Shown: positions 17,241-62,805 of the stretch, piece after piece
Numbering within the stretch: the first letter of the stretch is position 1
How the letters are laid out: each line of letters begins with the position of its first letter
IMG/VR virus record: IMGVR_UViG_3300008267_000019
Coordinates: 1-64,000 of that record
Length of the DNA stretch: 64,000 nt
Strand: one strand, 5' to 3'
Source of the DNA: a virus
Translations under genes and position numbers: made by a program
The notes under the pieces: generated by a model
Seen by the model: the letters and a program-made list of their open reading frames with translations, nothing else
Databases searched by the model: none
What the model was told of the DNA's origin: nothing

Positions 17241-17474
17241 ATGGCAACTTATAAATTTCCTCAATTTAATACAGAAATTACTAACCCAACTGTGACAGTA
17301 ACAGTTGTTAATGATTTTATTCAAGAAAGACTTTGTAATGCAGAAGTAATACTTTCTGTACCAGATGCAAACTTTGGTGTAATATTTTATGGTTATACTT
17401 ATACTACAGATTGGAATGACCAGGATATTATAGCTTGGGTAAATAATGTTGAACTTCCCAAATATGAAATATAA
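17241..17474 (+). CDS. Small hypothetical protein
   Basis: 77 aa; stop overlaps the next start (TAATG). Confidence 0.6.
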   Translation: MATYKFPQFNTEITNPTVTVTVVNDFIQERLCNAEVILSVPDANFGVIFYGYTYTTDWNDQDIIAWVNNVELPKYEI

Positions 17475-17974
17475 TGAAGGAAGAGGCAACATCAGGTTTT
17501 ATAGGATTTAGTAGCCCATTAGATTTTTTCTATTCACTTGTTGGTGCTAAAAGTTGGACAATTAATGCTGGTGCAGCATTTATTGCAGGATTAACTTCTT
17601 TTATTACAAATTATATTTGGGATGATCCTACAGCAGTATATACTCTTTGGTCATTAATGTTTGCAGATTGGATGTCAGGTATTATTAAAGCAGTTGTTAA
17701 TAAACGTTTTGTAAGCTTTAAAATATGGAGAATGCCTTTATATTTTGTAGCTACTTCATATATTTTACACATATCTTGGTATATGGCAAAAAGCAACGGG
17801 ATATATTACTATTTACCAGCAGTTGTAATAGGCGGATTCTATTCTGTATATTTTGTATCTTTATTAGAAAACTTAGGAGATATAAAAGCACTGCCAAAGC
17901 CTTTAGTAAAAATTCTTAAATCTAGATTTGGTTTAAAGAAGTTAATAGAAAAAGACGAAAAAAATGATGAATAG
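17474..17974 (+). CDS. Holin (phage holin 4 / toxin-secretion-holin-like)
   Basis: Three to four hydrophobic helices, D..SG..KA motif, SLLENLG..LPK.L motif and a charged C-terminal tail. Confidence 0.75.
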   Translation: MKEEATSGFIGFSSPLDFFYSLVGAKSWTINAGAAFIAGLTSFITNYIWDDPTAVYTLWSLMFADWMSGIIKAVVNKRFVSFKIWRMPLYFVATSYILHISWYMAKSNGIYYYLPAVVIGGFYSVYFVSLLENLGDIKALPKPLVKILKSRFGLKKLIEKDEKNDE

Positions 17975-18480: not shown

Positions 18481-19599
18481 TTGAAAAATCTCCCAAAAGA
18501 AGAGTTATTAAGTAGGCTAGAAGCAATTAACAGAAGTAATGCTATTATCTACTTTGACCTTGCTGGTATTATACTAGGGGTCAATGACATTTTTTTGGAG
18601 GCAATGGGTTATGGTAAAGGCAACCATGATGATATCATTGGTAAACACCATAGCATTTTTGTTTGTGAAGATTATTCAAAATCATTTGAATATGAGAAAT
18701 TTTGGGATATTCTAAGAAGTGGTAAGTATTACACTGGAGAATTTGAAAGAAGAAAAAAGGATGGAAGTCTTATTAATCTTCAAGCAACTTACAATCCTAT
18801 ATTTAATGAGGATGGTAAGATTACCAAAGTTATGAAGATTGCTACTGACATTAGTTTAATTGTCAATAGTAAGAAACAGATAGATGCCATCAACCGAAGT
18901 ACTGCTCTTATTAGTTTTAACACAGATGGTTTTATAACAGATGCTAATTCTATATTTTTAGAAACAATGGGATATAAAGCCAATGAAAAGGCTAAAGTCA
19001 TTGGGAAACATCACAGCATTTTTGTTAGCTACGAGTATTCTAAATCTGATGAATATGCTAAGTTTTGGGAAAGTCTGAGAAAGGGTAAGTTCTTTGATGG
19101 AATATTTGAAAGAAGAAAAGTAGATGGATCTACTGTTTATTTACAAGCATCTTATAATCCTGTAGTAGACAGCAAAGGAAATATAACAGATGTAGTTAAA
19201 ATTGCAACTGATGTAACTGAAGCTGTAAACAATGAAAAAAAGATAGAGGATCTTTCAAAAAATCTACAAATAGAACTAGACAACTCTCAAAAACTTAAGA
19301 ATGCAATAGAGATAGAAAAGGATGCAGCTTTGAATGACTTAGATGTAATGATGAAAAAAAGCCAAAGTGAGCTAATTAAAATCATTGTTAAAGTTGCATT
19401 GGCTGTTATAGTTGGAGTTGGACTTGTAACAACACTATTATATTGGGTTGCCATTGTAACAAGTCAAGATACTCAGATCATTGGATCAACTTGGAGTAAT
19501 ATGTTTAGTGTATTATTAACTAATGCCTTTTCAATAGTAGGTACAATCATGGGTATCAAGTATGCTACTCAGGAAACTGGAGGTAAACAAAAAAAATAA
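18481..19599 (+). CDS. Tandem PAS-PAS sensor protein with coiled coil and two C-terminal transmembrane helices
   Basis: Two BdlA-like PAS/PAC repeats (AINRS.A.I.F...N..FL..MGY...IGKHHSIFV...FW..LR.G...YNP....G....V.KIATD). No MCP, kinase or GGDEF output domain. TTG start codon. Confidence 0.9.
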   Translation: MKNLPKEELLSRLEAINRSNAIIYFDLAGIILGVNDIFLEAMGYGKGNHDDIIGKHHSIFVCEDYSKSFEYEKFWDILRSGKYYTGEFERRKKDGSLINLQATYNPIFNEDGKITKVMKIATDISLIVNSKKQIDAINRSTALISFNTDGFITDANSIFLETMGYKANEKAKVIGKHHSIFVSYEYSKSDEYAKFWESLRKGKFFDGIFERRKVDGSTVYLQASYNPVVDSKGNITDVVKIATDVTEAVNNEKKIEDLSKNLQIELDNSQKLKNAIEIEKDAALNDLDVMMKKSQSELIKIIVKVALAVIVGVGLVTTLLYWVAIVTSQDTQIIGSTWSNMFSVLLTNAFSIVGTIMGIKYATQETGGKQKK

Positions 19600-19892: not shown

Positions 19893-20702
19893 ATGGTACT
19901 AAAAAAAGGAGACAATAATGATACTGTTAAGAAGATTCAAGCAGTATTAGGTGTAGAACAAGTAGGTAACTTTGGACCAAAAACAGAAGCTGCTGTTATT
20001 GAGTTTCAAAAAAAACATGGTCTTACTCCAGATGGAGTTGTAGGACCTTCTACATTAGCTAAAATGGGTATTACATTAGATTCTGCACCAGCAGCTGCTA
20101 AACCAGCGGTTGCTTCTAAATATACAGCAGCTCAAGTAAAAACTGCAGTAGCATCTAAAAGCTACAAATGGTTTGAAGGTAAAGATTTAATGTTAAATAT
20201 TGTAGGAATACGTAATTCTTTTACAGGTCAAAAAGTAACTAATTTATTTGACGATCATTTAACTTTAACTTATACAGTTAACGGTGTAGAACATTTTCAT
20301 TGCTGGCCAGCTACTACAGATCCTGGAACTAAAGGTGTAATGCAGTATGGAAACAAAGCTGGTGTAGCTAGACTAGTAGAAGGACAGTACATCAACTCAC
20401 ACATCATGCGTTTACATGCAGGTAAGTATGAAGCACTAGGACAAAACAAACCAGTTAAAGTATTCCGTGATCCAAACAAAGATATGGTATATGATGAAAA
20501 GTCAATACAAGAAGGATTATTTGGAATCAATATTCACAAAGCTGGAGCAGATTCAACATTTGTAGAAAACTGGTCAGAAGGATGTCAGGTATTTAAGAAG
20601 TCTGCAGACTTTGAAGAGTTTATGGCAATATGTAGAAAAGCAAAAGCTATACACGAAAACAACTTTACATATACTTTAATCGAGTCAAACGACATTGTAT
20701 GA
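19893..20702 (+). CDS. Endolysin: N-terminal peptidoglycan-binding domain plus YkuD/L,D-peptidase-like catalytic domain
   Basis: PG_binding_1 motif FGPKTEAAVIEFQKKHGLTPDGVVGPST, A/P-rich linker, GINIH...WSEGCQV His/Cys motif. Confidence 0.82.
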   Translation: MVLKKGDNNDTVKKIQAVLGVEQVGNFGPKTEAAVIEFQKKHGLTPDGVVGPSTLAKMGITLDSAPAAAKPAVASKYTAAQVKTAVASKSYKWFEGKDLMLNIVGIRNSFTGQKVTNLFDDHLTLTYTVNGVEHFHCWPATTDPGTKGVMQYGNKAGVARLVEGQYINSHIMRLHAGKYEALGQNKPVKVFRDPNKDMVYDEKSIQEGLFGINIHKAGADSTFVENWSEGCQVFKKSADFEEFMAICRKAKAIHENNFTYTLIESNDIV

Positions 20703-22564: not shown

Positions 22565-23397
22565 TGCACGCAGGAAAAACAGTTTCATATAAAGCAATCC
22601 TTGATAAAACTATCAGGGATTTTGGCTTTAATTATGATATAATCGAAGAAGAAGGTATTGAATGGTTAGCAGAGTTCATGGCTCACACCAATGTAGGCGT
22701 GACTATGGAGGAAAAAATTGCATATATGGAAATATGTGATGCTCGCGGAGATCTTCCTTTTGATTTATATAAAATTGGCCAAGCAGCACATATTGAAGGA
22801 GTAGAAACTATTGAAGAAGCTATGTGTGGTAAAGGACGTATGTTTCCAATGAGATGGAAAACAGATTACTTCCACAAACGCTACCATAGAGACGATAGAG
22901 ATTATACAACAGAATCTAGAGAAACTTATACTGTAGGTCAAGGATATATTTTCCCAAGTTTTAATAGAGGCATTGTAGCAATGAGTTACACTGCTATACC
23001 AACAGACGATTGCGGATACCCTACTATTCCTGCAGAGCAAGAATGGTTAGAAGCAGGGGCTCATTATATTGCATATAAAATTGCTAGAAAACTGTGGTTA
23101 AGAAATGAATTAGCTTCAGATAAGTTTCAAATTATAGAACGAGATAGAGATTGGTATTTTGCACAAGCAGTAAATCATGCTAAACAATGGAATGGTGTTG
23201 ATGAAGCAGAAACAGTTAAAAACTCTGTACTTAGAACTATTCCTGATGTACAAGCGCATGCAAGCTTCTTTGCTAATATGCAATTACCTGAACAACGTAA
23301 ATTTAGACCTAAAGCAGGTGTAGGTTTAGTATCAACAATTAATGTATTAACTCACGGACAAAATCCAGCAACTGTAGTACCATCTAACACTCCATAA
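22564..23397 (+). CDS. Tail tubular / ring protein (P22 gp4-like position)
   Basis: 277 aa, G.V.MSY.AIPTDDCGYP.IP motif, directly upstream of the stabiliser. Confidence 0.7.
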   Translation: MHAGKTVSYKAILDKTIRDFGFNYDIIEEEGIEWLAEFMAHTNVGVTMEEKIAYMEICDARGDLPFDLYKIGQAAHIEGVETIEEAMCGKGRMFPMRWKTDYFHKRYHRDDRDYTTESRETYTVGQGYIFPSFNRGIVAMSYTAIPTDDCGYPTIPAEQEWLEAGAHYIAYKIARKLWLRNELASDKFQIIERDRDWYFAQAVNHAKQWNGVDEAETVKNSVLRTIPDVQAHASFFANMQLPEQRKFRPKAGVGLVSTINVLTHGQNPATVVPSNTP

Positions 23398-26300
23398 TGG
23401 AATCTCAAATAAATACATATCAGGGAATGAATAAAGATACTGCTTACGATACTATCGAAGCATCTCTTTATATTGACGCAAAAGATATTAGAATAACAAC
23501 CACCAACGGAGAATCTATTGGTGGTTTTACTAATATTAAAGGAACAGAGTTTTCTTTTGCAATACCTTTAAGAGGCACATTTCCTAGTAACCCTGTACAA
23601 GTTTGGGTAGCAGACAATCCTGCAGTTATAGGATATACTACTATTAGAAATAAAATAATTTTATTTGTTGCTGATGATAGCAATGAAAAAGGTTGGATAT
23701 ATGAAGTACAATATGATCCTGCAACTAGGCAAGTACTATCAGGATTTCCATTATTAAAATATTATAATTCTCTTTTATATTTTAAAAAAGAATGGCCTAT
23801 AGAAGCACTTGGTCGCTATGAATCGGATACTATACAAAGAGTTTATTGGACAGATTATAATAATTATTTTAGAGCAATAAATTTAGAAGAAGCAGATTTA
23901 GCTAATCTTCCTGTAGGACAAATAGATATTTTTCCAGATGTAACTTACACACAACCTTTATTAAAAACAATTTCAGGAGGAGGAGCTTTACTATCAGGGG
24001 AATATCAAATAAGTTACAGATTAATTACAGTAGATGGCAAACAAACTTTAATAGCTCCTCCAAGTAATTTAATACATATAACATCTCCTTCAGAAACATT
24101 AATACAATCAGCGCAATATACGGGAGATCTTGCTGCAGTCAATACAGGCAAAGCAATTAGTATAGAAGTTGACACAAGTAATTATGGAAATTTTGATAAA
24201 ATAGAATTTATTGCAGTATATCATTCTGCACAAAATTCTGTCCCTGTAGTTACTAGTATAGAACAGATGGGAATAGGTTCCGCTACTACAGTTACTTTTG
24301 TTTATACAGGAACTGAAGGAACGGCTATACCTGTAGAGTTATTTACTTTTACTACTAAAAATTACGCATTCAAAACTCCTAAAACTATTACTCAAAAAGA
24401 TAGTTCTTTAGTAATAGCTAATATAAAAGGCTCTAATATTTCTGTACAAGATTTACTTACAACAGGAAGTTTTGATGCAAAAACTAGAAGATATAGAAAC
24501 AATGGCGTAGACCCCATTGCTCCTCCATTTCCTCCAGGACCAGGTAATGATTTACTAAATGCATTTAACGAAGAGTATAATAAAGATGCACATTGGAGTA
24601 GAGATTGGAATATAAATTCTCAATATAGATATCAATCTGATGGAGCAAGACTAGGTGGCGAAGGACCTAATATTTCATATACGTTTCATTTAGAAACTTA
24701 CACAATGGATGGTAGTGCTACACCAGGTTTTGCCAATGTAGCTAATATACCAGATTTTGTATATACTCACGATTTAAATGACGGTTATGGAACCTACGCT
24801 AACACTACTTTTCCTAATCATGCTTCTCCATTTATATCAGGATTATTAAGAGGATACAAACGCGGTGAAACATATCGTTTTGGAATTGTGTTTTATACTA
24901 TTAAAGGGGAAACTACTTTTGTTGAATATATAGGTGATATTAAATTTCCAGATATTTCTGAGGAAGATTCTGTAAATAATTCTTCTACTACTAAATTTTG
25001 GCCTTTATCTCAAACAGGTACTCCTTCTACAGTAACCCTAGGTTATTCTATGGGTATACAATTTAGTATAGATTTAAGTTCTTGTCCAGAGTTGTTAAAC
25101 CAAATTACAGGTTATCAAATAGTAAGAGTAGAAAGAACAGAAGCTGATAAACGACGATTAACTCAAGGTATTTATAAAGGATTTTATTTTAATAGAGTAT
25201 TAGCTCCAAACCGTTCATTTAATTTTGATTTACAAATAGAAAATCAAGAAGAAGTTTTACACCTTTACCCTTACTACCCAGATACTTTAGAAGACAATGG
25301 ATGTTTTTCAACTTTAGGGGGAACAGGTTATATTCCGCAATATTTGCAATATATTATAAAAGGAGAATATTTAGGATTTTATAGCCCAGAAATTTCTTAT
25401 GATTATAATAATGTTAGAGATATAGCAAGAAACTTAGGAAGTAATCCTTGTTTACTTTTAACAGGAGCATATGGAGTTAAAGATAAAAATTCTCCTAGCC
25501 CAATTGATTTAAACTCTATAGATTTAGGAATAAAAGATTATGATTATAGAGTCACTTTAAGATCTACATTACCTGTAACATTTAATAGTATTAACAATAT
25601 TAAAAAATGGAAATTTATTAATCTATTTACAATGGAAGATACTAGTGACTACAAAACAAAAGTCACTGGAGATTTAGATGGATATTACATGCGTAATTAT
25701 TGGTGTTTAGATAATTGGTATTATAAAGGACTTCCTGGCCCAGGTATAGATCCTAATGATCCTTCTAATGGAGTAAACTACGCTAGTACTTCTTATGATC
25801 TTGCAGAATTTTATAAAGCAGGTACAAGTTTAGTAGGAAAAATAGATTTAATACAAAATGATCTTTTAACGGGAGCTCCTTTGCCTTTAAATTCTATAGC
25901 ATTAACTTCTTATTTTTGGACTCCATTTAATGGTAATGATCCTAACGGAAATCCTAAAATATTAATTAGAAATATAAGCACAGGAGCAAGTATAAACGCT
26001 ACTGATACTAATACTTATAACAATGCTTACCCTATACTAGATTTTTTAATTCCCAAAAAAGAAGTTTATGGAGGATCTTCTCAAGATGCTCTAGAAGCTA
26101 ATATATTTATTCCTGCGTCTCCATTTATAAGTTCAAGTAATTTAGTTGGATTAACAGATACATTTATTGTATTTGGTGGAGATATATTTATTAATATGTT
26201 TACTCTTCAACCTGGTATGACAGAATTTAATGAAGAGTTTTATCAAAATAATATTGCATTTAATAATCTTAGATATATACAAAATAATAGTGTTACCGAA

Positions 26301-27806
26301 GTTTATCCTGTTGAGACTAGTATAAACATAGATTTAGCAGCAGGTTCTACAATTAAAACAGAAGTTAAATATGATTACAACGGCAATGAATATACATTAT
26401 TTAGACAAGAATTAAATAATAGTTTTATAGGATATGCACAGAGTAATACAATGTATAGTTACAACACAGTATATTCTAGAGAAAGTAAAGATGTTACATT
26501 TTTTATAGAACCTGCAGGAAGTAACGGCAGTTCTAATTTAAATGATATTAGAGCATATTTATCTAATGTAAAAATTAACGGAGAAACTATAGATTCCTGG
26601 ACAAAGTTTGGATCAAATAATTATTATGATGTTGATGATTATGGACCTATAAATAAAATATTAAACTATAAAGATTCCGTATTTTTTATTCAAGATAAAG
26701 CTGTAGGTATTTATGCCATAAACAGAGCCGCTATTACTACTACTGCTGACGGAGTTCCTACACAATTAGGTCTTGGTCAAGGATTTGGGAAACATCAATA
26801 TTATTCTAAAGAAAATGGTAGTATACATCAATATGGAGTAAAAGTTGCCCCAGAAGGAGTTTACTTTTTAGATGCAATTCATAGAAAAATATTTTTACTT
26901 CAAAGCTCTGGAACTCAAAGTCAAAATGATCCTATATCAGAACTTAAAGGAATGCATAGTTATATACAAGCATTACCTAATGGAGTATTCTTACGCAAAG
27001 AAGATGGAGGAGATAATCCTATTTTAAAACGCGGAATTACTATAGGAAAAGATAAAATAAATGATGAAATTTTATTTACTTTTTTAGGAACAGGAGACTT
27101 TGTAGTATTAGGTCCTAATACAACTTATACTGTAGGCACAATTGTATATGAGCCTGCTAGTGGATTATATTATATAGTAACTTCAGAATTTACATCAGGA
27201 GAAACTAAACTACAGGCTATAAGAGATTTATTAGAAAACTCTCAAGTAGCAACAGAAAAAGATAATTTTAGAGATGCAACTCTTGTATTTGACGTTTTAA
27301 TGAATTCTTTTTCTTCTACGTATTCAGCAAAGCCAACTATTTATATAGAAAACGGAGATATAATTCAGAGTCCTGATCCAAATAATAACAATCTTATATA
27401 TACTCATAATATAGGAACTTATGGAGAATTTTATGGTAATGTAGAAGAATGTTATTTAACTCTTGTAATTAATCCTCAAGCAGATATAAATAAAATTCTT
27501 AGAACTTTAGAATTTAATTCTATAGTAAGAGATGATAATAAAGTAATAGATAGAACAGAAACTATTACTGCATTTCAAATTACTACTGAATATCAAGATA
27601 CAGGTAAAGTGCCTTATAGCTCTGGAAGAATTAAAAGAAAGTTTGATAAATGGCGTGTAAAAATTCCTAGAAATCAATTAAGTATTTCACAACAAGATCG
27701 TTTGAGAAGTACTCATTTTGTTTTAACTTTATATTTTGATAATTTAAATCAAAAACAAATTATAGTAAATAGATTAATTTCTTATGTAGACTATCAAATG
27801 TTCTAA
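23397..27806 (+). CDS. Tail stabilisation / muzzle protein (P22 gp10-like)
   Basis: 1469 aa; N-terminal GMNKD...AKDIRI, RVYWTD, GYKRGETYRFGIVF, FGGDIFI and YGPINKI motifs; C-terminal RLRS. Confidence 0.82.
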   Translation: MESQINTYQGMNKDTAYDTIEASLYIDAKDIRITTTNGESIGGFTNIKGTEFSFAIPLRGTFPSNPVQVWVADNPAVIGYTTIRNKIILFVADDSNEKGWIYEVQYDPATRQVLSGFPLLKYYNSLLYFKKEWPIEALGRYESDTIQRVYWTDYNNYFRAINLEEADLANLPVGQIDIFPDVTYTQPLLKTISGGGALLSGEYQISYRLITVDGKQTLIAPPSNLIHITSPSETLIQSAQYTGDLAAVNTGKAISIEVDTSNYGNFDKIEFIAVYHSAQNSVPVVTSIEQMGIGSATTVTFVYTGTEGTAIPVELFTFTTKNYAFKTPKTITQKDSSLVIANIKGSNISVQDLLTTGSFDAKTRRYRNNGVDPIAPPFPPGPGNDLLNAFNEEYNKDAHWSRDWNINSQYRYQSDGARLGGEGPNISYTFHLETYTMDGSATPGFANVANIPDFVYTHDLNDGYGTYANTTFPNHASPFISGLLRGYKRGETYRFGIVFYTIKGETTFVEYIGDIKFPDISEEDSVNNSSTTKFWPLSQTGTPSTVTLGYSMGIQFSIDLSSCPELLNQITGYQIVRVERTEADKRRLTQGIYKGFYFNRVLAPNRSFNFDLQIENQEEVLHLYPYYPDTLEDNGCFSTLGGTGYIPQYLQYIIKGEYLGFYSPEISYDYNNVRDIARNLGSNPCLLLTGAYGVKDKNSPSPIDLNSIDLGIKDYDYRVTLRSTLPVTFNSINNIKKWKFINLFTMEDTSDYKTKVTGDLDGYYMRNYWCLDNWYYKGLPGPGIDPNDPSNGVNYASTSYDLAEFYKAGTSLVGKIDLIQNDLLTGAPLPLNSIALTSYFWTPFNGNDPNGNPKILIRNISTGASINATDTNTYNNAYPILDFLIPKKEVYGGSSQDALEANIFIPASPFISSSNLVGLTDTFIVFGGDIFINMFTLQPGMTEFNEEFYQNNIAFNNLRYIQNNSVTEVYPVETSINIDLAAGSTIKTEVKYDYNGNEYTLFRQELNNSFIGYAQSNTMYSYNTVYSRESKDVTFFIEPAGSNGSSNLNDIRAYLSNVKINGETIDSWTKFGSNNYYDVDDYGPINKILNYKDSVFFIQDKAVGIYAINRAAITTTADGVPTQLGLGQGFGKHQYYSKENGSIHQYGVKVAPEGVYFLDAIHRKIFLLQSSGTQSQNDPISELKGMHSYIQALPNGVFLRKEDGGDNPILKRGITIGKDKINDEILFTFLGTGDFVVLGPNTTYTVGTIVYEPASGLYYIVTSEFTSGETKLQAIRDLLENSQVATEKDNFRDATLVFDVLMNSFSSTYSAKPTIYIENGDIIQSPDPNNNNLIYTHNIGTYGEFYGNVEECYLTLVINPQADINKILRTLEFNSIVRDDNKVIDRTETITAFQITTEYQDTGKVPYSSGRIKRKFDKWRVKIPRNQLSISQQDRLRSTHFVLTLYFDNLNQKQIIVNRLISYVDYQMF

Positions 27807-30800
27807 TGAAAAATAAACCTAAAAATATACCTACTTACTACAAGTTTCCTGGAACTCCAGTCTATAGAGATACTACAGCTTTACCTTTTAAAGCTGGTGG
27901 TAGTTTGTTTCCATCTTTATATGGAAATTCTTTTTTAGAAAATAATGATAAAGAAAAAAAGAAAAAAAGAAAAACAAAAGAAGATTTAAATGAATCATCT
28001 ACACAAGGTGATATAGTAGAAGCTATAGAAACAGAAACAGGACTTGATCCAAATCTTACATATTATAAAGGACCAACAAACTGGGGTGATAGATTATTTG
28101 CAAAAGATGCATCAGGTGCTTGGTATTCAATAGAAGCAGGTCAAGCATTACCTTTTTCTTATGATCCTGATTACTTAAATCAAAATACTACAAAAGCAAG
28201 TGATGAAGAAGCATTAGGAAGACTGCTTCAATCAAAAACACTTAATGAAGTAGCTGTAACTGGAGAAAAACTTTCTTGGCAAAAGTATCAAGATGAATAT
28301 GAAAAATCTAATCCTAGAGGAGAATATTTAGAAAAAAGAAAAAAGAATTATTTAAAATCACATCCTGGATTAAACAGAGCAATGGGAGTTACTATGAATA
28401 ATTTCCCAGAAGATGCTCTTGCAAGATTTAATGACAAGTATAATAAAGAAAGAAATACTTATGCACTTGAAAAATTTGTAGATAAAGATTTAGAAGAAGA
28501 TATAGACAAAAGAGGACGATGGATAGATGATGTAGAAAAAAGTCCAGGACTTTATAATATGGTTATTAACTCTAAATATGGATATAATTTAAAACCAAAT
28601 ATATTTTCAAGAACGCTTGCAGGCGCAGAAAAATTAGTAGACTGGATACCAGGAGTAGATCCTCTTTTAGATTGGGCTACAGGTAAAAATAGATATAATG
28701 ACATTCTTACTGAACAAGAACAAAAAGATGTAACAGGATGGGATGCTTTAGCATTTACAGAATATCCTGGTCAAGTTTTAGCTAATATGATAGCAGAAGG
28801 AATAGATCCTAATTCAAATGCTTCTTGGGAAACATTTTCAGGAAGTTCTTCTCCAATTGTTACAGCAAATCCTCAATTAGAAACAATGACCCAATTAGCA
28901 ACGGGAGCAATTGGTTTACCATTTAATGTAATGGGAATGGCTAATTTAGCTAAAAATGTAGGAAAAGGAGTTTCTAATGTAGCTAAAGCTAATTATTATG
29001 ATCTTTTTAAAAAAGGAAATAATTCTTTTAATGATATTAATTTTCAAAATTTTAAAACTGCCGAAAATACAGCAGGAGAATTAGCACAAGGAGTAAATAC
29101 AATAGATAATACAGGGGCAACTGCATCATTAAATACTGGACAAAATGCTACAGGAGCAAATAAAATATTAACAAATGAAGAAATTAAAAACATAATAGTA
29201 AACGAACAAGTACCTAGTCCAAAAACATTATTATCAACTGAAGGAGAAATACTTCCTGAGTCTGCTTCATGGCATACTATAATGGAAGATTTTAAAACAA
29301 AATTACGCGAAGTAGATCTTACAAAACCTTTAACAGATGAAGATTATATTAAAGCTGCTAATGCAATTAATCCTGAAATAAGTAAAGTAGCAAGTTTAGA
29401 TGAAATTAAAGCTGTACATCAAGAAGCTCTTGATTATTTTAAAGGAGAAAAAGATCCTGAAGATATAGCATTATATATAAGAGATGCATTAGCAGAAAAA
29501 TTACCATCAATAGGAGAAGCTCCTACTATGGTTGACGGGTATCCAACATATTCTGCAGGATTTTCAGTAAGTCGTTCTTTAGATCCTAATGCTGCTCAAT
29601 ATTATGGACCAAAAAGTGTTTTTGATAAAGCAAAGGACTGGGGATATGATTTAAATAATCTAACTCCTAAGCAACAAAATATGTTAGCTGCTTATACAAA
29701 AGGATATGATTTTCCTATAAATATTGGTAAAAGATTTGGATTTCAAGATATGGGTATTAGAGGAGATTTTTATCAAAAAAATGCTAATACATTACTTGAC
29801 GCTATTCTTGCTAATAAATTTCCTAATGACACCTCAGTAATAAGAAGTATAAAAACAAATTATCCGCTTACTTTATTAGATAAAAATAAATTATTAGAAA
29901 CAAAGGATATATCATTATCAGAAACACCAAGTACTAAATATAGAGGAAACCTTCAAAAAAGTGATGTAATAGGAGATAAAGGATTTTTATCTACTAGTTT
30001 AATTCCAGATTTAACATGGGGTAAAGCTAGATTAGGAGAAAGAATTATGATTCCAGGAGGAAATAAACAATCTTATGGTTTTCCTAATGCATCTTCAGCA
30101 AGTTCTTCTCCTTTTGAAGGAGAAATAGTGTTGCCATCTGGTTTAGGAAGAGAAGTTATTGACGTATTACCTGATAATCTAGCAAATGTTGTCGGTTATA
30201 AATATATAACAAAAATATTAAATCCATATTTAATGCCTGCAGCAATAGGAACAACTGCTACTGGAACTTTTTTTGGAAATAATAATAATAATTATGGAGC
30301 TTCTTTTGATACTCCTAATATGCAAGAATATTTGAATTCTTTAATGTGGGATTCTGGAAAATCTGTATTATTAAATTCAGGTTATTTTAAAGCATACGGA
30401 GGCCCATTAAATGATAGAAACATTAATGGCAAATTATTGCAAAGTACTTACGCTAGTCCTTTAGGAAACATGTTTAGAGAAGGAGGACCTTTTGGTGAAG
30501 ATAAAGGAACCTTTGATTATGCTACTAGTATTTATGCTTCTCAACCAGGTAATTATTATAATAATGGCGGGGAAATAAATCCAATGAATGCAATGATGAA
30601 AGCAAGACTTGCTTATGCAAATGAGTTTGGTAATCCTGCAGCAAAAAGAATGGTAAATTTACCTGATAATCCTTATATTTTTACAGGACAAGAGCCTTAT
30701 ACAACTCCAGATATGGCAGGTGCATTAGGAACACATTATATGTTTTCTCAAGATAATTATGCTATTCCCACAATACAACAAGGAGAAAATGGACAATTAT

Positions 30801-31327
30801 ATTATAATCAAAATGCAAATGCAGCTGATAAAGAGGCAATAAAATTTGATAGCCCAGAAGATGCTGAATATTTTGCAGAACATTATAAAGAAGTTTCTCC
30901 AGGGTTTATTAATAATAATTATAGAACAGGAGGACAATTTCCTAGACCATATAGTTTACCAGAAGATAGTTTTAAACAAGGAGGAAGAAATTTACATAAC
31001 AGTGTTTATGCTTCTTCTAATGCTCAATATCCTGCTATATATAAATTAGGAGGAAATATTAATGTATATAAACAAGGAGGCAGTGTATTATCAATGTCTA
31101 ATACACCTCAATTACAAGGTGAAGGAAAAGATTTAACTGTACCAGAAAATGCTTATATTTACGCTGGCGGAGGATTAATTAAACGTGCTGATGGAAGTTA
31201 CTCACAACGTGGTTTATGGGATAACATTCGTGCAGCAGCACAACGTAATAAAGCAATGGGTAAAACAGGTAAACAACCTACAAAACAAATGTTACAACAA
31301 GAAAAAAAGATTAATAAAAATAAATAA
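27806..31327 (+). CDS. Putative ejected cargo protein containing an ADP-ribosyltransferase (VIP2/Alt-like) domain and [FY]xxGG-delimited modules
   Basis: AYT..YD..IN, R680, S729-T-S731 (DKGFLSTS), E771-G-E773 (FEGEIVLP); nine xxGG motifs. Confidence 0.7.
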   Translation: MKNKPKNIPTYYKFPGTPVYRDTTALPFKAGGSLFPSLYGNSFLENNDKEKKKKRKTKEDLNESSTQGDIVEAIETETGLDPNLTYYKGPTNWGDRLFAKDASGAWYSIEAGQALPFSYDPDYLNQNTTKASDEEALGRLLQSKTLNEVAVTGEKLSWQKYQDEYEKSNPRGEYLEKRKKNYLKSHPGLNRAMGVTMNNFPEDALARFNDKYNKERNTYALEKFVDKDLEEDIDKRGRWIDDVEKSPGLYNMVINSKYGYNLKPNIFSRTLAGAEKLVDWIPGVDPLLDWATGKNRYNDILTEQEQKDVTGWDALAFTEYPGQVLANMIAEGIDPNSNASWETFSGSSSPIVTANPQLETMTQLATGAIGLPFNVMGMANLAKNVGKGVSNVAKANYYDLFKKGNNSFNDINFQNFKTAENTAGELAQGVNTIDNTGATASLNTGQNATGANKILTNEEIKNIIVNEQVPSPKTLLSTEGEILPESASWHTIMEDFKTKLREVDLTKPLTDEDYIKAANAINPEISKVASLDEIKAVHQEALDYFKGEKDPEDIALYIRDALAEKLPSIGEAPTMVDGYPTYSAGFSVSRSLDPNAAQYYGPKSVFDKAKDWGYDLNNLTPKQQNMLAAYTKGYDFPINIGKRFGFQDMGIRGDFYQKNANTLLDAILANKFPNDTSVIRSIKTNYPLTLLDKNKLLETKDISLSETPSTKYRGNLQKSDVIGDKGFLSTSLIPDLTWGKARLGERIMIPGGNKQSYGFPNASSASSSPFEGEIVLPSGLGREVIDVLPDNLANVVGYKYITKILNPYLMPAAIGTTATGTFFGNNNNNYGASFDTPNMQEYLNSLMWDSGKSVLLNSGYFKAYGGPLNDRNINGKLLQSTYASPLGNMFREGGPFGEDKGTFDYATSIYASQPGNYYNNGGEINPMNAMMKARLAYANEFGNPAAKRMVNLPDNPYIFTGQEPYTTPDMAGALGTHYMFSQDNYAIPTIQQGENGQLYYNQNANAADKEAIKFDSPEDAEYFAEHYKEVSPGFINNNYRTGGQFPRPYSLPEDSFKQGGRNLHNSVYASSNAQYPAIYKLGGNINVYKQGGSVLSMSNTPQLQGEGKDLTVPENAYIYAGGGLIKRADGSYSQRGLWDNIRAAAQRNKAMGKTGKQPTKQMLQQEKKINKNK

Positions 31328-31333
31328 GATACT

Positions 31334-34300
31334 ATGAACTTTAAATCCAACGCTGCATATAAAAGATGGTTAGGATATGGCCATGCTTCAGGAGAATTTG
31401 CTAAGACTCCTGGAAATCAACCTGTAAGCATAAAAGGACAATCTCATAAAGTAAAACATGAAATGGGAGGTAATATGTATGCTGACGGAGGAAAGTTTAA
31501 TAATAGTGGCTTCAAAGCTTTGCCTGTAGAGATTCAGAATAAAATTAAAAAGAACTTTATGGCTATGGGAGGAATGATGCCTACACAAATGCCTATGCAA
31601 AATCCTTATAATTCAAATTTTTTAAATAGCGGAATAACTCAAAATTTTGCATTTGGAGGAAGAATAAATAGTTATGCTGGAGGAGGTATGTTAGATAACC
31701 AACTTACGCAATTTACTAATGGGGGTAAACATGAAGAAAATCCAATAGGCGGAATTCCTCAAGGGTTTTCCCCTGATGGTAGAGTTAATTTAGTAGAGCA
31801 AGGAGAAACTAAATTAAATTCTGCAGATTATATATTTTCTGATACTTTAAAAGTTACTAAAGATATTGCGCTTGATTATGGTTTACCTAAAGATACTATA
31901 GGTAAAACATTTGCAGATGCTTCTAAAAAAATGAATAGACCAAATTCTCGTAGAGAAAATGATACTATAGAAGAAGTAGCAAAGCAAAGAGACTTAGATA
32001 ATTTAATGCAAGCTCAAGAAGATTTTAAACAAAGAGATCTTCAAAAAGACATAGACATGATGGCTGAAAAACATCCTGAGTTTATGCAACAAATGATGGG
32101 TCAAGGACAGCCAGAAGGAATACCTCAAGAATTATTAGCGCAAGGAGTTCCACCAGATCAAATGATGGCAGCAGAAGAAATGATGGGAGGACAAACTCCA
32201 CAATCTGTGCAACCAATGGGAATGCCGCAAGGAATGCCTATGGACCCTAATCAAATTCCGCCAGAGATGTTAGCGCAAATGCCTGAAGCACAAATGGGAC
32301 AACCTGTTATGGCTTATGGAGGACATATATATAAATGCGGAGGTAAGATGTATAACTTTGGAGGACATATGTATGCTAATGGAGGTCATATGTATGGAGA
32401 CGGAGGGTTTTTTCAAGGAATGGGAAATGTATTACAATCTGTAGCGCCTATAGCAGGACAAGCTCTTAATACTGTTATTCCTGGTTCTAGTGTAGTAATT
32501 TCTGGAGCTCTTAGTGGTTTAGGAGCAGGATTACAAAATGTAGGCACAGGAGCAGATTTTAAAGAAGTTGCTAAAGATGTAGGAATAGGCGCAGCTAAAG
32601 GTGCTATTGGAGGTATTGTACCAGGAAAAGATATAAGTAAATTAGGACAATTAGCATTAGACACTGCTCCTCAAGTAATGGATGTATTAGGAAATACTAT
32701 AAATGCTAATACTAATGATGCCTCAGAAATGAGTTTAATACGACAACAAGAAGCGTTAAATGCTCCTAAAATGGTATCAGGTTATAATATGTCTCCTACT
32801 CCTATGCAAATGAAGTACGGTGGATATAAAGCACAAGCACCTTGGCATAATTTTCCACAATATACTCCTAACTATCCTGGTAACGCAGGTCCTATGTATA
32901 TGGGATTAGGAACTAATTTATTTGCTGATGGAGGAATGATGATGCCTGGCCCAGGAGATCCTCCTAAAAATGATGCAACAACTTTAGATGAAGTTGTAGT
33001 AACTGCTGGTCCACAAGGTCCTGTTATAATAGACAATCCTATATACAGTAATTTAATGGAACAATATACTGCAGGATTACCTAAAGGAGGAACTTACAAT
33101 AATAAAACTTGGTCTGGAACATCCGTAAGAGATGCAGATCTTACAAGAAAACTTACTGATGAAGAACTAGCTAATTGGACAAAATATTATCAAAATAGAA
33201 CTAGACAAGAAATAAATAGTTTAAAAGCACAAGGACAAGATTATAGTGAAAAATTAGCTCAATATAATTTTATACCTAAAGCAATGTATGTTCCCGCTAT
33301 TCCTACAGGAATGGGAGAAGATTATTATTCTAATCCAGAAAATTGGTATTATAATACAAAACATTTAGGAGAAAATTATTCTAAACCTTCTAAACAAATA
33401 GAAGATATTTTTGCTGTTAATACTACACCTCAAATTATTCAAGAACAAGCCCCTGTATTACCTACTATTACAATGGCTGAAGCAGAAGCTATGAAAAATA
33501 AAGCAATGCAAGAATTTGGTTCTGGTGTATTACAAGGAAAAAATTGGAATTATAATGAACAACCTAAAAATTATACAGGAACTCAAGCAGGGGGAGGTAT
33601 GTTTAATTACTGGGATGAAAGTGATCCTACTCAAGCAGCTAATCAAAAAGAATATGAACAATTTATTCAAGATCAATTAGTTGCAAATCCTGATAAAGTT
33701 TTATACTCTAATTTATCAGGAGTAGATATGTATTCCAATCCTAACTATGAAGCTGAATTAGCAAAAAATATTAATGAAGGTCCTCAAGGTCATTTATATG
33801 ATCAATTTATTGCTAAAAAATATAATGAGTATATAAATAACCCAGAATGGGTAAATAGTTTATCAGAAGAAGATAAAGCAAAATATTTATTTGATAATAG
33901 TAAATATAATGTTCAAATGAATGTCCCAGAAGTAATGGGATTTGCTAATGGAGGTTATATAAATAGAAATAATACTATGTATTCCCCTGACCTTACTTAT
34001 GCTGCAAAGATGGGAGGTCGTATATATAACTACGGAGGAGGGTTAAAAAATCCTTTAATGTCTTTACCTCAAGATAATTTTATTAGATATGATGAAGGGG
34101 GTAAAATAGTACAAGGAGCAGGCACAGATACTTATCAATATAAATATGAAAATGGCAATTACTATACTGCTAAAAAAGGAACTGCTGATTGGAAAAAAGT
34201 AGAACCTACAAATAAAACTGTTTATACTGCTGTAAAAACTTTAATAGATAATTATAAACCAGAAGTTGGAGGTCCAGGCGGAGGTAGTCAATATGATTTA

Positions 34301-35134
34301 ATGATGTCTAATATTGCAGCAGAAGAATCTGGTGAATTAATTCCCCCTACTATGGCAGAAGTAGAGGCTAATCGTGCTATTGCAGACGCACAAGAAAAAA
34401 TGCAAAATGCAGAAACTTCTGAAGAATACCAAGAAGGTGTTAAAGAATATGAATATGGAGTAAGAACTGCAGAAGAAGCATTAAAAGATAAAAATTTAAA
34501 ATTATCTATGGCACAAAGTATAGGCTCAGGATTAGCAATGGCTGCTCCTGCTGCATATAATTTAACTACAGGATTATTTGGAAAACCAGAACAATTAGAT
34601 TATAAAAATTATGAGATTGCTGCTGATATAACTCCTTATGAATATAATATTAATCCTCAGTTAGCAATGGCAAATCAGACTTTTGCACAAGCTCAAGAAG
34701 CTGCTAGAAATGCTTCTAATGCAGGAAATTATTTATCTAATATGCAAGGATTAGCTAACTTGAGAAATCAAACTGTTGGAGAGTTATACACTAATAAAGA
34801 AAATTTAGATGCTGCTCAAATACAAGCCGCTAAGACTGCTAATAAACAAATTGAAACTGATAACTTAACTAGAAGATTAGAAGTAGAAGATTTTAACAGA
34901 TTATCTAAAGCACAAAAAACTGAAGCTCTTAAAGCTGGATTAGTGCAAATGGCAGACATAGGTAAAAATATGGAAGAGAAAAAAATGCAGTTAGCATTAA
35001 TTAAAGCAATGGCTCCTGATTTTGCTAATACTTTATCTTATAGTACTATAGGAGAACAACTTTTAGAATATTTAAAAAATCAAAAAGCTGCAGGAAATAC
35101 TTCAGCAGAAAGTGAAATATTAAAAACTAAATAA
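31334..35134 (+). CDS. Ejected cargo protein with many [FYM]xxGG motifs and M/Q/P/G low-complexity tracts
   Basis: GGKHEENPIGGIP...VEQGET...YIFSD motif recalled from crAss-like cargo proteins; Gly-rich amphipathic helices; coiled-coil C-terminus. Confidence 0.7.
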   Translation: MNFKSNAAYKRWLGYGHASGEFAKTPGNQPVSIKGQSHKVKHEMGGNMYADGGKFNNSGFKALPVEIQNKIKKNFMAMGGMMPTQMPMQNPYNSNFLNSGITQNFAFGGRINSYAGGGMLDNQLTQFTNGGKHEENPIGGIPQGFSPDGRVNLVEQGETKLNSADYIFSDTLKVTKDIALDYGLPKDTIGKTFADASKKMNRPNSRRENDTIEEVAKQRDLDNLMQAQEDFKQRDLQKDIDMMAEKHPEFMQQMMGQGQPEGIPQELLAQGVPPDQMMAAEEMMGGQTPQSVQPMGMPQGMPMDPNQIPPEMLAQMPEAQMGQPVMAYGGHIYKCGGKMYNFGGHMYANGGHMYGDGGFFQGMGNVLQSVAPIAGQALNTVIPGSSVVISGALSGLGAGLQNVGTGADFKEVAKDVGIGAAKGAIGGIVPGKDISKLGQLALDTAPQVMDVLGNTINANTNDASEMSLIRQQEALNAPKMVSGYNMSPTPMQMKYGGYKAQAPWHNFPQYTPNYPGNAGPMYMGLGTNLFADGGMMMPGPGDPPKNDATTLDEVVVTAGPQGPVIIDNPIYSNLMEQYTAGLPKGGTYNNKTWSGTSVRDADLTRKLTDEELANWTKYYQNRTRQEINSLKAQGQDYSEKLAQYNFIPKAMYVPAIPTGMGEDYYSNPENWYYNTKHLGENYSKPSKQIEDIFAVNTTPQIIQEQAPVLPTITMAEAEAMKNKAMQEFGSGVLQGKNWNYNEQPKNYTGTQAGGGMFNYWDESDPTQAANQKEYEQFIQDQLVANPDKVLYSNLSGVDMYSNPNYEAELAKNINEGPQGHLYDQFIAKKYNEYINNPEWVNSLSEEDKAKYLFDNSKYNVQMNVPEVMGFANGGYINRNNTMYSPDLTYAAKMGGRIYNYGGGLKNPLMSLPQDNFIRYDEGGKIVQGAGTDTYQYKYENGNYYTAKKGTADWKKVEPTNKTVYTAVKTLIDNYKPEVGGPGGGSQYDLMMSNIAAEESGELIPPTMAEVEANRAIADAQEKMQNAETSEEYQEGVKEYEYGVRTAEEALKDKNLKLSMAQSIGSGLAMAAPAAYNLTTGLFGKPEQLDYKNYEIAADITPYEYNINPQLAMANQTFAQAQEAARNASNAGNYLSNMQGLANLRNQTVGELYTNKENLDAAQIQAAKTANKQIETDNLTRRLEVEDFNRLSKAQKTEALKAGLVQMADIGKNMEEKKMQLALIKAMAPDFANTLSYSTIGEQLLEYLKNQKAAGNTSAESEILKTK
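32309..32407 (+). repeat. Five tandem 21-bp (7-aa) repeats encoding MAYGG-HIYKCGG-KMYNFGG-HMYANGG-HMYGDGG
   Basis: The periodicity is visible directly in both DNA and protein. Confidence 0.85.
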
Positions 35135-40700: not shown

Positions 40701-43700
40701 ACAGAAGCTCCTATTAAAGTAACTACAGCAGATGGACAAACAGTATTTTATGTACATGACAATGCTTGGTATAAAGCAGAAAATTTAAGTGCTAGTCCTG
40801 AAGAAATTGCTATTGATAAAGAAAAGAATTTCTTAATAAGAAAAGCTATTATCTCTAAAGGAAAAGTAAATAGCAAAGTAGATTATAAAAGCTTTGGAAG
40901 ATTATTTAAAACAGCTGACGGTAAAAAAGTGACTGTATCAGAAGCTATGCCTGATAAAAATTTAGTATTAGGTATAGGAAAAGATGGAGCTATAGAACTT
41001 TCTGGAAATAGTTCAGAAGTTATGAAAGATGCTAAAATCTTAAAGAATAATCCTGAAGATGGTAGGTTATATGCAGTTGTTAAAGTAGGACCTAATGAAT
41101 ACATGCCTATTCCTTTACAAAGAAAACCTATAAACCAAGAAACTGTAGATTCAATTATTTTAGCAATTGAAGCTCACTTAACTAATGATCCTGAAAATGC
41201 TGTAGTAAAAGCTATTGCAGAATCTTCTTTAGGATTAGACATTACTACTACTAAAGGATTATCAGATTACTTGAGTCAGTTTATTTACATATATCCTACT
41301 GAAGGTAAAGAAGGTTTAGAAAATGCATTAATTAGCAACGGTGGTACTAAAAGTACTTTAAAGTCTTCTATGCCATTAATTACTGTAACTCCTACAGGAA
41401 TACAATTTGGTAGACCAGGAATACAAGCGGCCAATTATATGGACGCTAATAATAATAAGATAGTACAGTATGCTATTAATATTTCTCAAAATTTTAATAA
41501 AACTACTGCAGGAGAAGCTAGAAATAGTTTAAACTTAAATAAACTAAGAACAGTATTAGAATCAGGTAAAGTATTAGCTAATGCTAATAAAAATACTTTA
41601 AGCAAAGATGGTAACTCTGTAATTATATTAAATCCTGAAGGAGATACTAAAACAGATACTTATAGAGAGTTTGTAAAAGAGAATTACGAAAGTAATATCT
41701 TGTCAGTAAACATAGGCTCAGATGAAAATCCTAAATGGGCCTATACTATACAACCTACTATTTTATTTGACACAGCATTTGCTAACATGCCTACTCAAGT
41801 AGTTGCATCTAAAGCACAGTCTACTGTAGCACCTGTACCTAGCCAAACTGCACGTACTACACAAGAACCTACTCAAGCTGTAGAAAAACTTTATTATAAA
41901 GGAGTAAATCCTACAGTAGATACAATTGTAACTTCCGATGATAGGGTATTACTTATTAAACGTAAAGAAGGAGCTACAGAAGGGGGCAAGTGGGCAATTC
42001 CTGGCGGCTTTGTAGATACTAATTCTAAACCAGGTGAAGCTTGGACTCCAGGAAAAGAAACAGTAGAAGAAGCAGCTGTTAGAGAAATTAAAGAAGAAAC
42101 AGGTCTTAAAATTTCTCCAAAGTCAGTAGTATTTTCTGAAAAAATTGATGATAGATCTAGAGATCCTAGAAACACAGAAGAGTCTTGGATAGAGAATTCT
42201 CTTTATACTGTTAATATTCCAGCAAAACAAATGCAAAAAGCAAAAGGAGCAGACGATGCTTCTGAAGCTAGATGGTTTACTAAAGAAGAACTATCTCAAA
42301 TGCCTGCATCTGATTTTGCTTTTGATCACAGTAAAGTATTAGAAAGAAATAATTTAAGGACACCTTTAACAGCTAATAATAATATAGAATCTCAAAAAGC
42401 TGATATAGAAAGAAGAAGACAAAAAGCAATTGAATTTAATAAAGGAGCTAAACCTGTTACTGAAGAAGATTTTAAAGAATTTGATGAAAATTTTGTACTT
42501 ACAGAAGAATATAAAAAATTATTAGGTACGTATGATTTTGATTTAGATCCAGAATCTAGATCTGATAATGATTTAGTAGGTAATATTAAATCTATACAAG
42601 AAGGTATAGATTTAATTAATGCCAAATATGATGCAGAGTTAGCAGCTTTAGAACAACCTTCTACAGACATAGAAGTTAAAAGAGCCGATATAGAAAGAAG
42701 AAAAGCTTTAAGTAAAATAGTTGAGTTAGACACAAGAATATCTGATGAAGAAGTCGATGCAGTACAACCTGAACCAGGAGTAAGGGTTACTTATTATTTA
42801 CCAGAAGGTAAAACTACAGATGGAAGAGATATTTCAAAAATACCCAGAGGTTCTATTGAAAGATATACTACAGAAACTAAAGTTTTTTATGGTTTTGAAG
42901 AAGCTGAACAAGAAGCAAAAGCGTGGATTAAATCTAAATATGATGAAGAACTAGCAGCTTTAGAAGCTGCTCCTATTGCATCTGAGATTTCTGTAGAAGA
43001 GCAAGTAGAACAAAATGTTCCTACATCATTAGCAGAAAATATATTAGCGCAAGGAGTTGATTTAGCAGAAATTAATGATACTATCGAAGCATTAAATAGT
43101 GGTAATATTAATGAAGAAGCTTTAGCAGAAGCGGGTTATGAATCTACAGAACAAGCATTAGCAGCTTATCAAGAGGCTAAAGATTTATATAATAAAAGAG
43201 CTGAAGATACCGAGACTATTACTTTGCCTAACGGTGAGACTATCACTATTACAGGTAATGATTTAGATATTAACGATCTAGCAGAGGATGAAATAGATGA
43301 TTTTTTAGTTAGAACATTAACTAAAGAACAAATAGAAGCGCAAAAAGGAGAAATAGATGAGATGATCATCTATGGTTTAAATACTACTACTCAGTCATCT
43401 TTAATAGCTTTTTTATCAGCTGATATAATTAATGCTGCTTTAAATGCTAAAGAAGTTGGAGGCAAACGCAGCGTAAAGGCTAAAGAAATCTTAGACAAGC
43501 ATGAAGAGTCTTTTAAAATATTATCTGAATTCTTTAAAAAGAAAAATTTAGTAAATAGAGCAAAACATGTTGATGCTGTATTAAGTCAATTTGATAAAGT
43601 AAGAAGATTAGTAAACCAAAACATGAGTAAGTTTACTACAGGAAATTTATCAGAAGAAGTAGAATACGATGATAATCAGCAAGCAGTAGGACTAGAGCGT

Positions 43701-62793: not shown

Positions 62794-62805
62794 AGTTTTA
62801 ATTTT

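Follow-up and report, generated by a model that had tools for sequence, protein, structure and literature searches.

Two adjacent genes of a divergent crAss-like phage, located on the 64,000-nucleotide stretch of DNA analyzed here (positions 1 to 64,000 of the IMG/VR virus record IMGVR_UViG_3300008267_000019; the window), encode large cargo proteins of 1173 and 1266 amino acids (aa), designated P0001 and P0002, in which the short motif [FYM]xxGG recurs many times. Judged from alignments with relatives, this motif is the joint between short modules of 30-140 aa, which are found reordered, fused, or encoded as separate small genes. The two proteins belong to known kinds: P0002 is an orthologue of cargo protein 1 (gp45) of crassvirus crAss001, and P0001 falls among the packaged ADP-ribosyltransferases (ART) or polyvalent effectors. 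The joint motif together with its module grammar, including the tiny stand-alone genes, appears to be new. By homology with crAss001, P0001 and P0002 are presumed to be packaged in the virion and injected into the host. A preliminary description of the window had reported the motifs and taken the proteins for possible effector polyproteins processed at Gly-Gly (GG) sites; its observation of the motif is confirmed. In the human gut, crassviruses rank with the most abundant viruses, and how their cargo is packaged, threaded through the portal and tail, and delivered to the host is a standing question. The motif provides a readable grammar that predicts module borders and marks effector insertion points, connects the large cargo proteins with tiny stand-alone genes found in at least 545 viral contigs of IMG/VR, and, through named GG sites, makes the question of processed versus single chains experimentally precise.

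With the strict pattern [FYM]xxGG, nine motifs were found in P0001 and 15 in P0002, compared with 0.99 and 1.77 expected from 5000 residue shuffles (maximum 6 and 9, respectively). The strict copies of P0001 are FKAGG (residue 28), MIPGG (748), FREGG (890), YNNGG (918), YRTGG (1039), FKQGG (1056), YKLGG (1079), YKQGG (1088) and YAGGG (1119). Of the nine motifs originally listed for this protein eight are strict, while KAYGG is a variant, FKAYGG, with F at position -4 and Y at -1 (counted from the first Gly); MIPGG, absent from that list, sits within the enzyme domain and is probably a chance copy. For P0002 the strict count is 15, the original estimate having been about 17, and the fivefold tandem array is present as described, with five motifs at a 7-residue period (residues 326-358). 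Phe or Tyr occupies position -3 in 7 of 10 GG runs of P0001 (binomial P = 6e-6) and in 11 of 24 of P0002 (P = 9e-7). In the 28 other plus-strand open reading frames (ORFs; 15,504 residues) this is the case in 5 of 58 GG runs, which equals the background of 0.088, and these ORFs hold seven strict motifs in total, approximately the number predicted from composition. Within the window, the enrichment is limited to P0001 and P0002.

At least 934 relatives of P0002, 167 relatives of P0001 and 1145 shorter proteins matching the trailer (C-terminal part) of P0001 were recovered, by a word-based search that may favour motif-rich proteins. The set compared in detail comprised 231 proteins (229 relatives and window proteins, plus gp45 and gp46 of crAss001). 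The median number of motifs in this set is 10, against 1.2 expected, and 222 of the 231 proteins have at least 5. Across 4177 GG sites, F, Y, W or M is present at -3 in 56% (background 12%), with Y (28%) and F (21%) prevailing; M is enriched at -4, and A, K and R at -2. The second residue after GG is commonly hydrophobic (M 18%, L 18%, I 9%, F 7%), Pro directly follows GG in 9% of sites, where it is among the commonest residues, and peaks of Gly at -7/-6 and +7/+8 correspond to heptad arrays. In close relatives the aromatic residue and GG are fixed, whereas the x positions vary, and in 60 aligned sequences the GG pairs of YADGG, YAGGG, heptad repeats 1-3 and MKYGG are invariant or nearly so. 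The family consensus is (M)-[YF]-[AKR]-x-G-G-x-[MLIF], and the motif is under purifying selection. Cargo protein 1 orthologues of gut crassviruses show a weaker enrichment (3-5 motifs against approximately 1.1-1.2 expected), and their neighbouring genes have 0-1 motifs.

The position of the motif relative to module borders was followed in the relatives. The module beginning with MNFKS, which opens P0002, occupies the N-terminus of 16 proteins and an internal position in 32; in each of the latter it comes directly after [FY]xxGG-x-[ML]. One of the relatives, 1828 aa long, is a fusion of a P0001-like with a P0002-like protein, and its junction reads ...INNN-YKQGG-T-MNFKS. In the window the two genes are separated at this place by a TAA stop and two codons (GAT ACT), in the same frame as both genes; readthrough would yield a fusion of 2441 aa, which is conceivable from the arrangement of the frames. 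In another relative the upstream cargo gene is in a different frame. One relative has an insertion of approximately 190 aa inside the heptad array, and in several the CARG1 region is split, at the GG matching gp45 434-435, by insertions of approximately 400 residues. A motif is at most 10 aa away from 44% of 35,363 breakpoints of BLAST high-scoring segment pairs (HSPs), where 16.8% would be expected; the peaks of HSP starts and ends fall on the aromatic residue and on GG, respectively. Internal sites equivalent to the N-terminus of another protein have a motif GG at most 4 aa upstream in 262 of 1366 cases (19%; background 3.5%), and sites equivalent to a C-terminus have one in 10.5% (background 3.4%). 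The comparison with relatives supports the clustering at module boundaries noted earlier: the motif coincides with insertions, fusions, splits and the termini of stand-alone modules. For P0001 this needs to be qualified, as its motifs sit in the leader and trailer, where they delimit the short conserved modules, and do not part the sub-domains of the payload.

Among the 167 relatives of P0001, wide conservation is restricted to residues 1-34 and 860-1173. The leader, M1, which ends in FKAGG, is 62-77% identical at the N-terminus of many relatives, where it is joined straight to the segment starting at residue 863, and 75 proteins of the compared set begin with this leader followed by [FY]xxGGPL. 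Since only the leader and trailer are widely conserved and the former directly joins the latter in many relatives, residues 35-859 are regarded as an insertion. By these comparisons P0001 is a protein in which a payload of approximately 825 aa, with a predicted ART domain, is inserted between the leader and trailer modules of its family. BLAST coverage follows the same division, with 5-18 relatives per 30-aa block over residues 61-840 against approximately 90-130 over residues 871-1170. The payload lacks the aromatic joint motif except for MIPGG; the leader carries one copy and the trailer seven strict copies and FKAYGG (separators FKAYGG, FREGG, YNNGG, YRTGG, FKQGG, YKLGG, YKQGG and YAGGG), with none parting the payload sub-domains.

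The single recognised enzyme domain of the window's P0001 matches Pfam ADPrib_exo_Tox (PF03496; 28.1 bits, cut-off 23.4), and a pattern search, made without reference to profile columns, found the R-S-E signature in the expected order (YRG 712-714, STS 729-731, EGE 771-773). The nearest relatives of P0001 carry ADPrib_exo_Tox too, according to precomputed annotation. On the basis of the domain match and the order of the signature, P0001 is taken to be a packaged enzyme effector, a predicted ADP-ribosyltransferase. The swappable set of enzymes suggested in the preliminary description is borne out by the relatives, in which the exchanged domains include two ART families (ART and ART-PolyVal), SET, YkuD, Amidase_2, glucosaminidase, VanY and lysozyme. 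P0001 gave no sequence match in PDB at E <= 0.01 and none in a tblastn search of 50,697 phage records, and PHROGs and Pfam searches with the whole cargo proteins and with single modules returned only ADPrib_exo_Tox and crAss_CARG1, all module matches having E >= 0.02.

The last trailer module, M5, a basic peptide of the KRADGSYSQRGLWDNIRA type, was found in at least 545 IMG/VR loci. Among 78 occurrences that were read, 24 are stand-alone ORFs of 47-66 aa (mostly 47-52 aa); in the others M5 is at the N-terminus (21), at the C-terminus (29) or internal (4). A GG lies just upstream of M5 in 26 of 33 C-terminal or internal copies, and a motif follows it in 19 of 25 N-terminal or internal copies. 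Complete M5 genes are present in loci L005, L012-L019, L021, L026, L028, L034, L036, L038-L039, L048, L052-L053, L057, L059, L062, L069, L072 and L077; in L028, L038, L039, L052, L053 and L069 the gene is at most 10 kb from terminase-like and portal genes resembling those of this phage. Searches of the ESM Atlas gave leads only: M5 and M3 resemble unnamed small viral proteins (0.93 and 0.89), and DUF6321 scored 0.84.

The assignment of P0002 to cargo protein 1 is based on the crAss_CARG1 domain (PF25725; 102.9 bits, cut-off 27; residues 106-238). Residues 105-243 align to gp45 424-551 with 42% identity (phmmer E = 9.6e-20; PDB 7qog_M), and the same chain is the top Foldseek match and the sole one at E of approximately 0.001 (E = 1e-3, target TM-score 0.52), obtained with a low-confidence query model. 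In the heptad array all six GG residues of repeats 1-3 and Y340 are invariant among the 60 aligned sequences. The Gly/small-residue-rich segment that follows (residues 360-430) is inferred to be the counterpart of a glycine-zipper/transmembrane segment of relatives; Gly-zipper Pfam matches occur in some relatives. Cys is the majority residue of heptad repeat 2 (YKCGG, 32330-32344) and, family-wide, is approximately 31-fold enriched right before GG and again 7 residues to either side, a pattern that may reflect a disulfide or metal site between chains. Residues 562-638 (33017-33247) match the conjugation protein TcpC weakly (PDB 3ub1_A, 'ORF13-like protein', E = 0.0026). Both cargo proteins contain stretches that we take to be similar to the TonB boxes of outer-membrane receptors and colicins, i.e., TLNEVAVTG in P0001 (aa 146-154; 28241-28264) and TLDEVVVTA in P0002 (aa 550-558; 32984-33007); a loose pattern of this kind is present in 26 of the 231 proteins, of which approximately 20 are apparently true variants (LPEVTVTP, LPDVEITA).

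The structure of the crAss001 virion resolves only fragments of cargo protein 1. As described in the article text, a compact domain made up of gp45 residues 425-552 sits on the portal wing and a second segment, residues 214-245, is bound to rings R1 and R2 within the tail barrel, each in 12 copies, and a transmembrane helix is predicted at 136-158 (Bayfield et al., 2023; PMC10172136). The portal-wing segment, deposited as a chain of 126 residues, begins at AFGG and has two further GG sites, and the three sites align with FAFGG, YAGGG and FTNGG of P0002. The earlier suggestion that the motifs are capsid-docking tags is in this respect partly upheld: one motif-rich stretch belongs, by homology to the crAss001 virion, to a portal-docking domain. 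AlphaFold2 (AF2) modelling of P0002 residues 1-560 gave a predicted local distance difference test score (pLDDT) below 50 at residues 79-160 and 319-519; for the P0001 trailer the mean was 39.9, with a shallow (32 rows) and mosaic alignment. The low-confidence parts include the first third of CARG1, whose counterpart is ordered on the crAss001 portal, which fits folding on binding as far as the models can be read. When the portal of the window was modelled with P0002 residues 98-245, the interaction prediction score from aligned errors (ipSAE) was 0.56 against 0.00 for the best of 3 controls, with at least 80% contact agreement between runs and partner pLDDT of at least 63. Of 80 solved complexes, 58 reach the mark applied to ipSAE, as do 2 of 110 mismatched pairs; only 7 of the 80 solved complexes, and both passing mismatches, reach it at 0.60 or under, so that the support is weak, and a similar portal complex has already been solved, so that the pass may be memory. 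M2 of P0001 was considered as a counterpart of the barrel-bound helix 214-245 and dropped, since in an hhalign comparison between the profile of leader plus M2 (initial 125 aa of 75 proteins) and gp45 residues 1-430 only the motif aligned (probability 0.14).

How the joints work was considered in the light of these data. We regard it as an even prospect that they stay uncleaved and serve as turns or hinges of an ejection protein that is disordered and thread-like, with each module docking independently of the others. The aromatic residue would anchor a Gly-Gly turn or hinge in a largely disordered chain; each module would fold or dock alone on inner virion surfaces, as CARG1 does on the portal wing; and the chain would be stored compactly and then extruded via the portal and tail. 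Such joints are proposed to tolerate insertion, fusion and fission because they are structurally autonomous, which would explain why payload swaps accumulate at them. Several observations weigh against uncleaved hinges. The modules are freely permuted and also occur as stand-alone genes, as would fit independent, possibly released, units. The passage of the gp45 chain through the portal, linking its two resolved parts, was assumed by the authors and not seen, according to the article text (Bayfield et al., 2023; PMC10172136), the GG sites in the resolved domain conform to a looser form of the motif than the strict one, and the resolved segments begin at or just after joints (residue 425 is the A of AFGG; residue 214 follows FSAYGG-PLE), as cleaved fragments also would. 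AF2 gave no confident model of any joint, all motif-rich parts of the two modelled segments being of low confidence. The breakpoint statistics were drawn from redundant proteins and are descriptive rather than independent tests, and the peak exactly on the motif is inflated because BLAST tends to extend into a shared motif. An alternative is that a protease cuts at the joints, which would make the cargo proteins true polyproteins. In the virion or once injected, they would be processed to docking pieces, free enzymes and peptides like the basic M5 of 48 aa by the SprT-like zincin of the 1479-aa protein, the DUF2201-type metallopeptidase (62806-63984) or a host enzyme. We consider cleavage doubtful. 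It would account for joints falling at a gene boundary and at the natural ends of modules that are encoded on their own, for the free module order, and for the resolved gp45 segments that begin at joints and flank the portal on both sides; two candidate metalloproteases are encoded, and processing has already been proposed both by zincins for packaged polyvalent proteins (PMC5512222) and for fused RNA polymerase (RNAP) polyproteins of crass-like phages. However, the crAss001 virion stretch that holds the three homologous GG sites is deposited as one chain, cutting at the arrays, with their 7-aa spacing, would release heptapeptides, and Pro is frequent (9%) directly after GG. In the sites of adenain, PLpro and ubiquitin-type proteases, P4 is hydrophobic and both P2 and P1 are Gly. 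The analogy to adenovirus and ubiquitin-type sites drawn in the preliminary description is out of register, as the peak of aromatic residues lies at -3, counted from the first Gly, which would be P5, the share of F/Y/W/M at -2 (the would-be P4) being only 7%. Pfam Peptidase_C48, C39, S78 and ClpP were all absent from the 84-kb record, which also counts against cleavage, and scans of 35 window ORFs returned only metallopeptidase-like protease domains; a search for C5 proteases was uninformative, its control being unresponsive. In crAss001, three RNAP-associated proteins were detected in virions whose bands include those of approximately 150, 270 and >300 kDa, an argument against cleavage of this cargo, although the bands are assigned in a figure and the text leaves gp45 unmentioned (Shkoporov et al., 2018; PMC6235969). 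Term searches in the texts of both crAss001 papers (PMC10172136, PMC6235969; supplements and figures being outside this scope) gave no words for cleavage or proteolysis. It is rather unlikely that the joints are processing sites for a protease specificity new to tailed phages, with the cargo made up of true polyproteins; if they were, the cut pieces would be docking parts, free effectors such as the ADP-ribosyltransferase and small basic peptides like M5, and the presence of gp45 parts on both sides of the portal would be explained.

Two further readings were weighed against uncleaved hinges. The motif could be a self-association element, with Gly-spaced aromatic stickers or short beta-hairpins in heptad arrays by which approximately 12 chains are packed densely within the portal and tail, as a plug or rod, or build a trans-envelope conduit after ejection. 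This is improbable in our view: the heptad periodicity, the hydrophobic residues on both sides of GG, the enrichment of Cys (31-fold) at -1, the array adjoining the Gly-rich hydrophobic segment and its predicted disorder agree with it, as do the rod-like density inside the portal and the very dense cargo packing described in the crAss001 article text (PMC10172136), but AF2 gives no structure and no model in its support, a fixed register of -3 would be unnecessary for a generic sticker, and the placement of the motif at module joints and gene boundaries is left unexplained. It is very improbable that the motif has no function at the protein level and is either the trace of recombination at DNA microhomology (TAT/TTT ... 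GGA GGA) or a set of internal translation starts (GGAGG, then ATG). Most copies are indeed encoded by GGA GGN, which contains GGAGG, and Met often stands after GG-x at module starts, yet GGA is as common in the motifs as among the Gly codons of the genes at large (148 of 230), the common DNA is only 6-9 nt long, conservation at the protein level is seen in the aromatic residue and GG but not in the x positions, and any hydrophobic residue, not just Met, follows GG-x. A further point against internal starts is that crass-like phages usually infect Bacteroidota, in which Shine-Dalgarno sites are little used.

P0002 resembles gp45 in the CARG1 domain, the gene position, the conserved C-terminal region and the Gly-rich hydrophobic segment, and gp45 shows a weaker form of the motif (3 strict copies against 1.2 expected; F/Y/W at -1 to -3 in 9 of 20 GG runs). 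In gp45, however, CARG1 comes after the Gly-rich segment, whereas in P0002 it comes before; P0002 also differs in its 15 strict motifs, the fivefold heptad array and extra modules such as the MNFKS mini-domain, and in the window, unlike in crAss001, a second motif-bearing cargo gene with an enzyme payload precedes the cargo protein 1 gene. Polyvalent proteins are likewise described as packaged and injected multidomain proteins with fast-shuffled ART, SET, lysozyme and peptidase domains, and with associated zincin peptidases proposed as their processors (Iyer et al., 2017; PMC5512222). In the portions of that article searched with the words 'linker' and 'glycine' no junction motif is described, and the proteins of the present family differ in their many short non-enzymatic modules, also found as genes for 47-66 aa, and in their location in a crassvirus cargo locus. 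The packaged and injected ADP-ribosyltransferase Alt of phage T4 has an N-terminal targeting peptide that is cut by the prohead protease. P0001 has in common with Alt the (here predicted) virion-packaged ADP-ribosyltransferase and a short conserved N-terminal leader, but this leader ends in aromatic-x-x-GG, and no T4-type protease or LxE-type sites are evident. With the sites of adenain, pS273R of African swine fever virus and ubiquitin-like proteases the family shares a recurrent GG after a hydrophobic residue in virion core proteins and a flanked module that is a small basic peptide; it departs from them in the hydrophobic residue being one position further away (P5), in the lack of any C48/C39-type protease found in the 84-kb record, in the 7-aa tandem arrays, and in some homologous sites being intact in a solved virion. 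Full-text literature searches, and the text passages of the crAss001 structure and polyvalent-protein papers, gave no description of the joint motif or the module grammar, supplements and figures being outside their scope.

The features discussed, with their coordinates, are compiled in Table 1.

Table 1. Coordinates of the cargo genes, their modules and related features in the window (nucleotide positions).
Feature	Position	Strand	Basis or remark
Portal protein, P22-like; presumed docking partner of the CARG1 domain	2506-5010	+	P22_portal E = 1.5e-5, under cut-off
Crass_capsid	6307-7818		Pfam
Muzzle protein gene	23397-27806		crAss_MUZ, 438 bits
P0001, 1173-aa cargo protein gene: leader, inserted payload with predicted ADP-ribosyltransferase domain, motif-rich trailer	27806-31327	+	ORF
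Leader module M1, aa 1-34	27806-27907	+	ends in FKAGG (aa 28-32)
Variable payload, aa 35-859	27908-30382	+	between FKAGG and FKAYGG
Predicted ADP-ribosyltransferase domain, aa 610-781	29633-30148	+	Pfam ADPrib_exo_Tox
Trailer, aa 860-1173: modules M2-M5	30383-31324	+	motif-delimited; modules reordered in relatives
Module M5, aa 1123-1173	31172-31324	+	basic peptide
Stop-start junction, TAA and two codons	31325-31333	+	YKQGG-T in the fused relative
P0002, 1266-aa cargo protein 1 orthologue gene	31334-35134	+	
N-terminal mini-domain MNFKS..., aa 1-45, then YADGG	31334-31468	+	AF2 pLDDT 69-86 over residues 1-40
crAss_CARG1 portal-binding domain, aa 106-238	31649-32047	+	FAFGG, YAGGG and FTNGG in its first third
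Heptad array, aa 326-358	32309-32407	+	MAYGG, YKCGG, YNFGG, YANGG, YGDGG
Gly/small-residue-rich segment, aa 360-430	32411-32623	+	sequence
Second motif cluster, aa 870-923	33941-34102	+	FANGG, YNYGG, YDEGG
Motif-free conserved C-terminal region of the cargo protein 1 family, ~aa 985-1266	34286-35131	+	alignment consensus, motif positions
SprT-like zincin segment, HELIH at aa 1264 of the 1479-aa RNAP-associated protein (47314-51753)	50968-51126	+	Pfam 24.9 bits, cut-off 25.6

The complete record is 84,121 bp long and has direct terminal repeats, and the window holds its structural and early part. The major capsid protein is approximately 30% identical to those of named crassviruses, and Pfam also matches tail ring proteins 3/4, 2 and 1 in the window. 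P0001 and P0002 sit where crAss001 has its cargo and RNAP-associated genes, and the order, with a cargo gene 3' of the muzzle gene and 5' of the RNAP-associated genes, is common to crAss001, Dulem virus 41 and cr85_1. The location between the muzzle and RNAP-associated genes, together with crAss_CARG1 in one of the two proteins, agrees with their earlier designation as virion cargo. Proteins of 867, 3018, 1479 and 1374 aa are encoded 3' of both cargo genes. The 867-aa protein was considered as cargo protein 2, an identity left unsupported by BLASTP, which gave no similarity to crAss001 gp46. The 3018-aa RNAP-associated giant protein contains a NUDIX hydrolase domain (41910-42341, E = 5e-18). 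A zincin had been placed on the RNAP chain: an HExxH domain does exist, just under the Pfam cut-off, but it belongs to the 1479-aa protein and not to the 3018-aa protein, which has no HExxH. This HELIH is the sole HExxH among 30 plus-strand ORFs of the window, and the SprT-like segment is, from its sequence, a candidate protease only. A second candidate protease, outside the virion gene block, is encoded on the minus strand (61624-63984), where a DUF2201_N putative metallopeptidase with a VWA-like domain (62806-63984) adjoins an AAA-type ATPase.

Amid the structural genes lies one for a 372-aa protein with two PAS domains (18481-19599; PAS_3 E = 2e-24, PAS_9 E = 4e-20), a sensor-type domain that is unusual inside a structural gene block. 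The block also contains genes for (i) a collagen-repeat protein (13555-14763), (ii) an Lcl_C-domain protein (16625-17233), (iii) a holin (17474-17974) and (iv) a PG_binding_1 protein (19893-20702).

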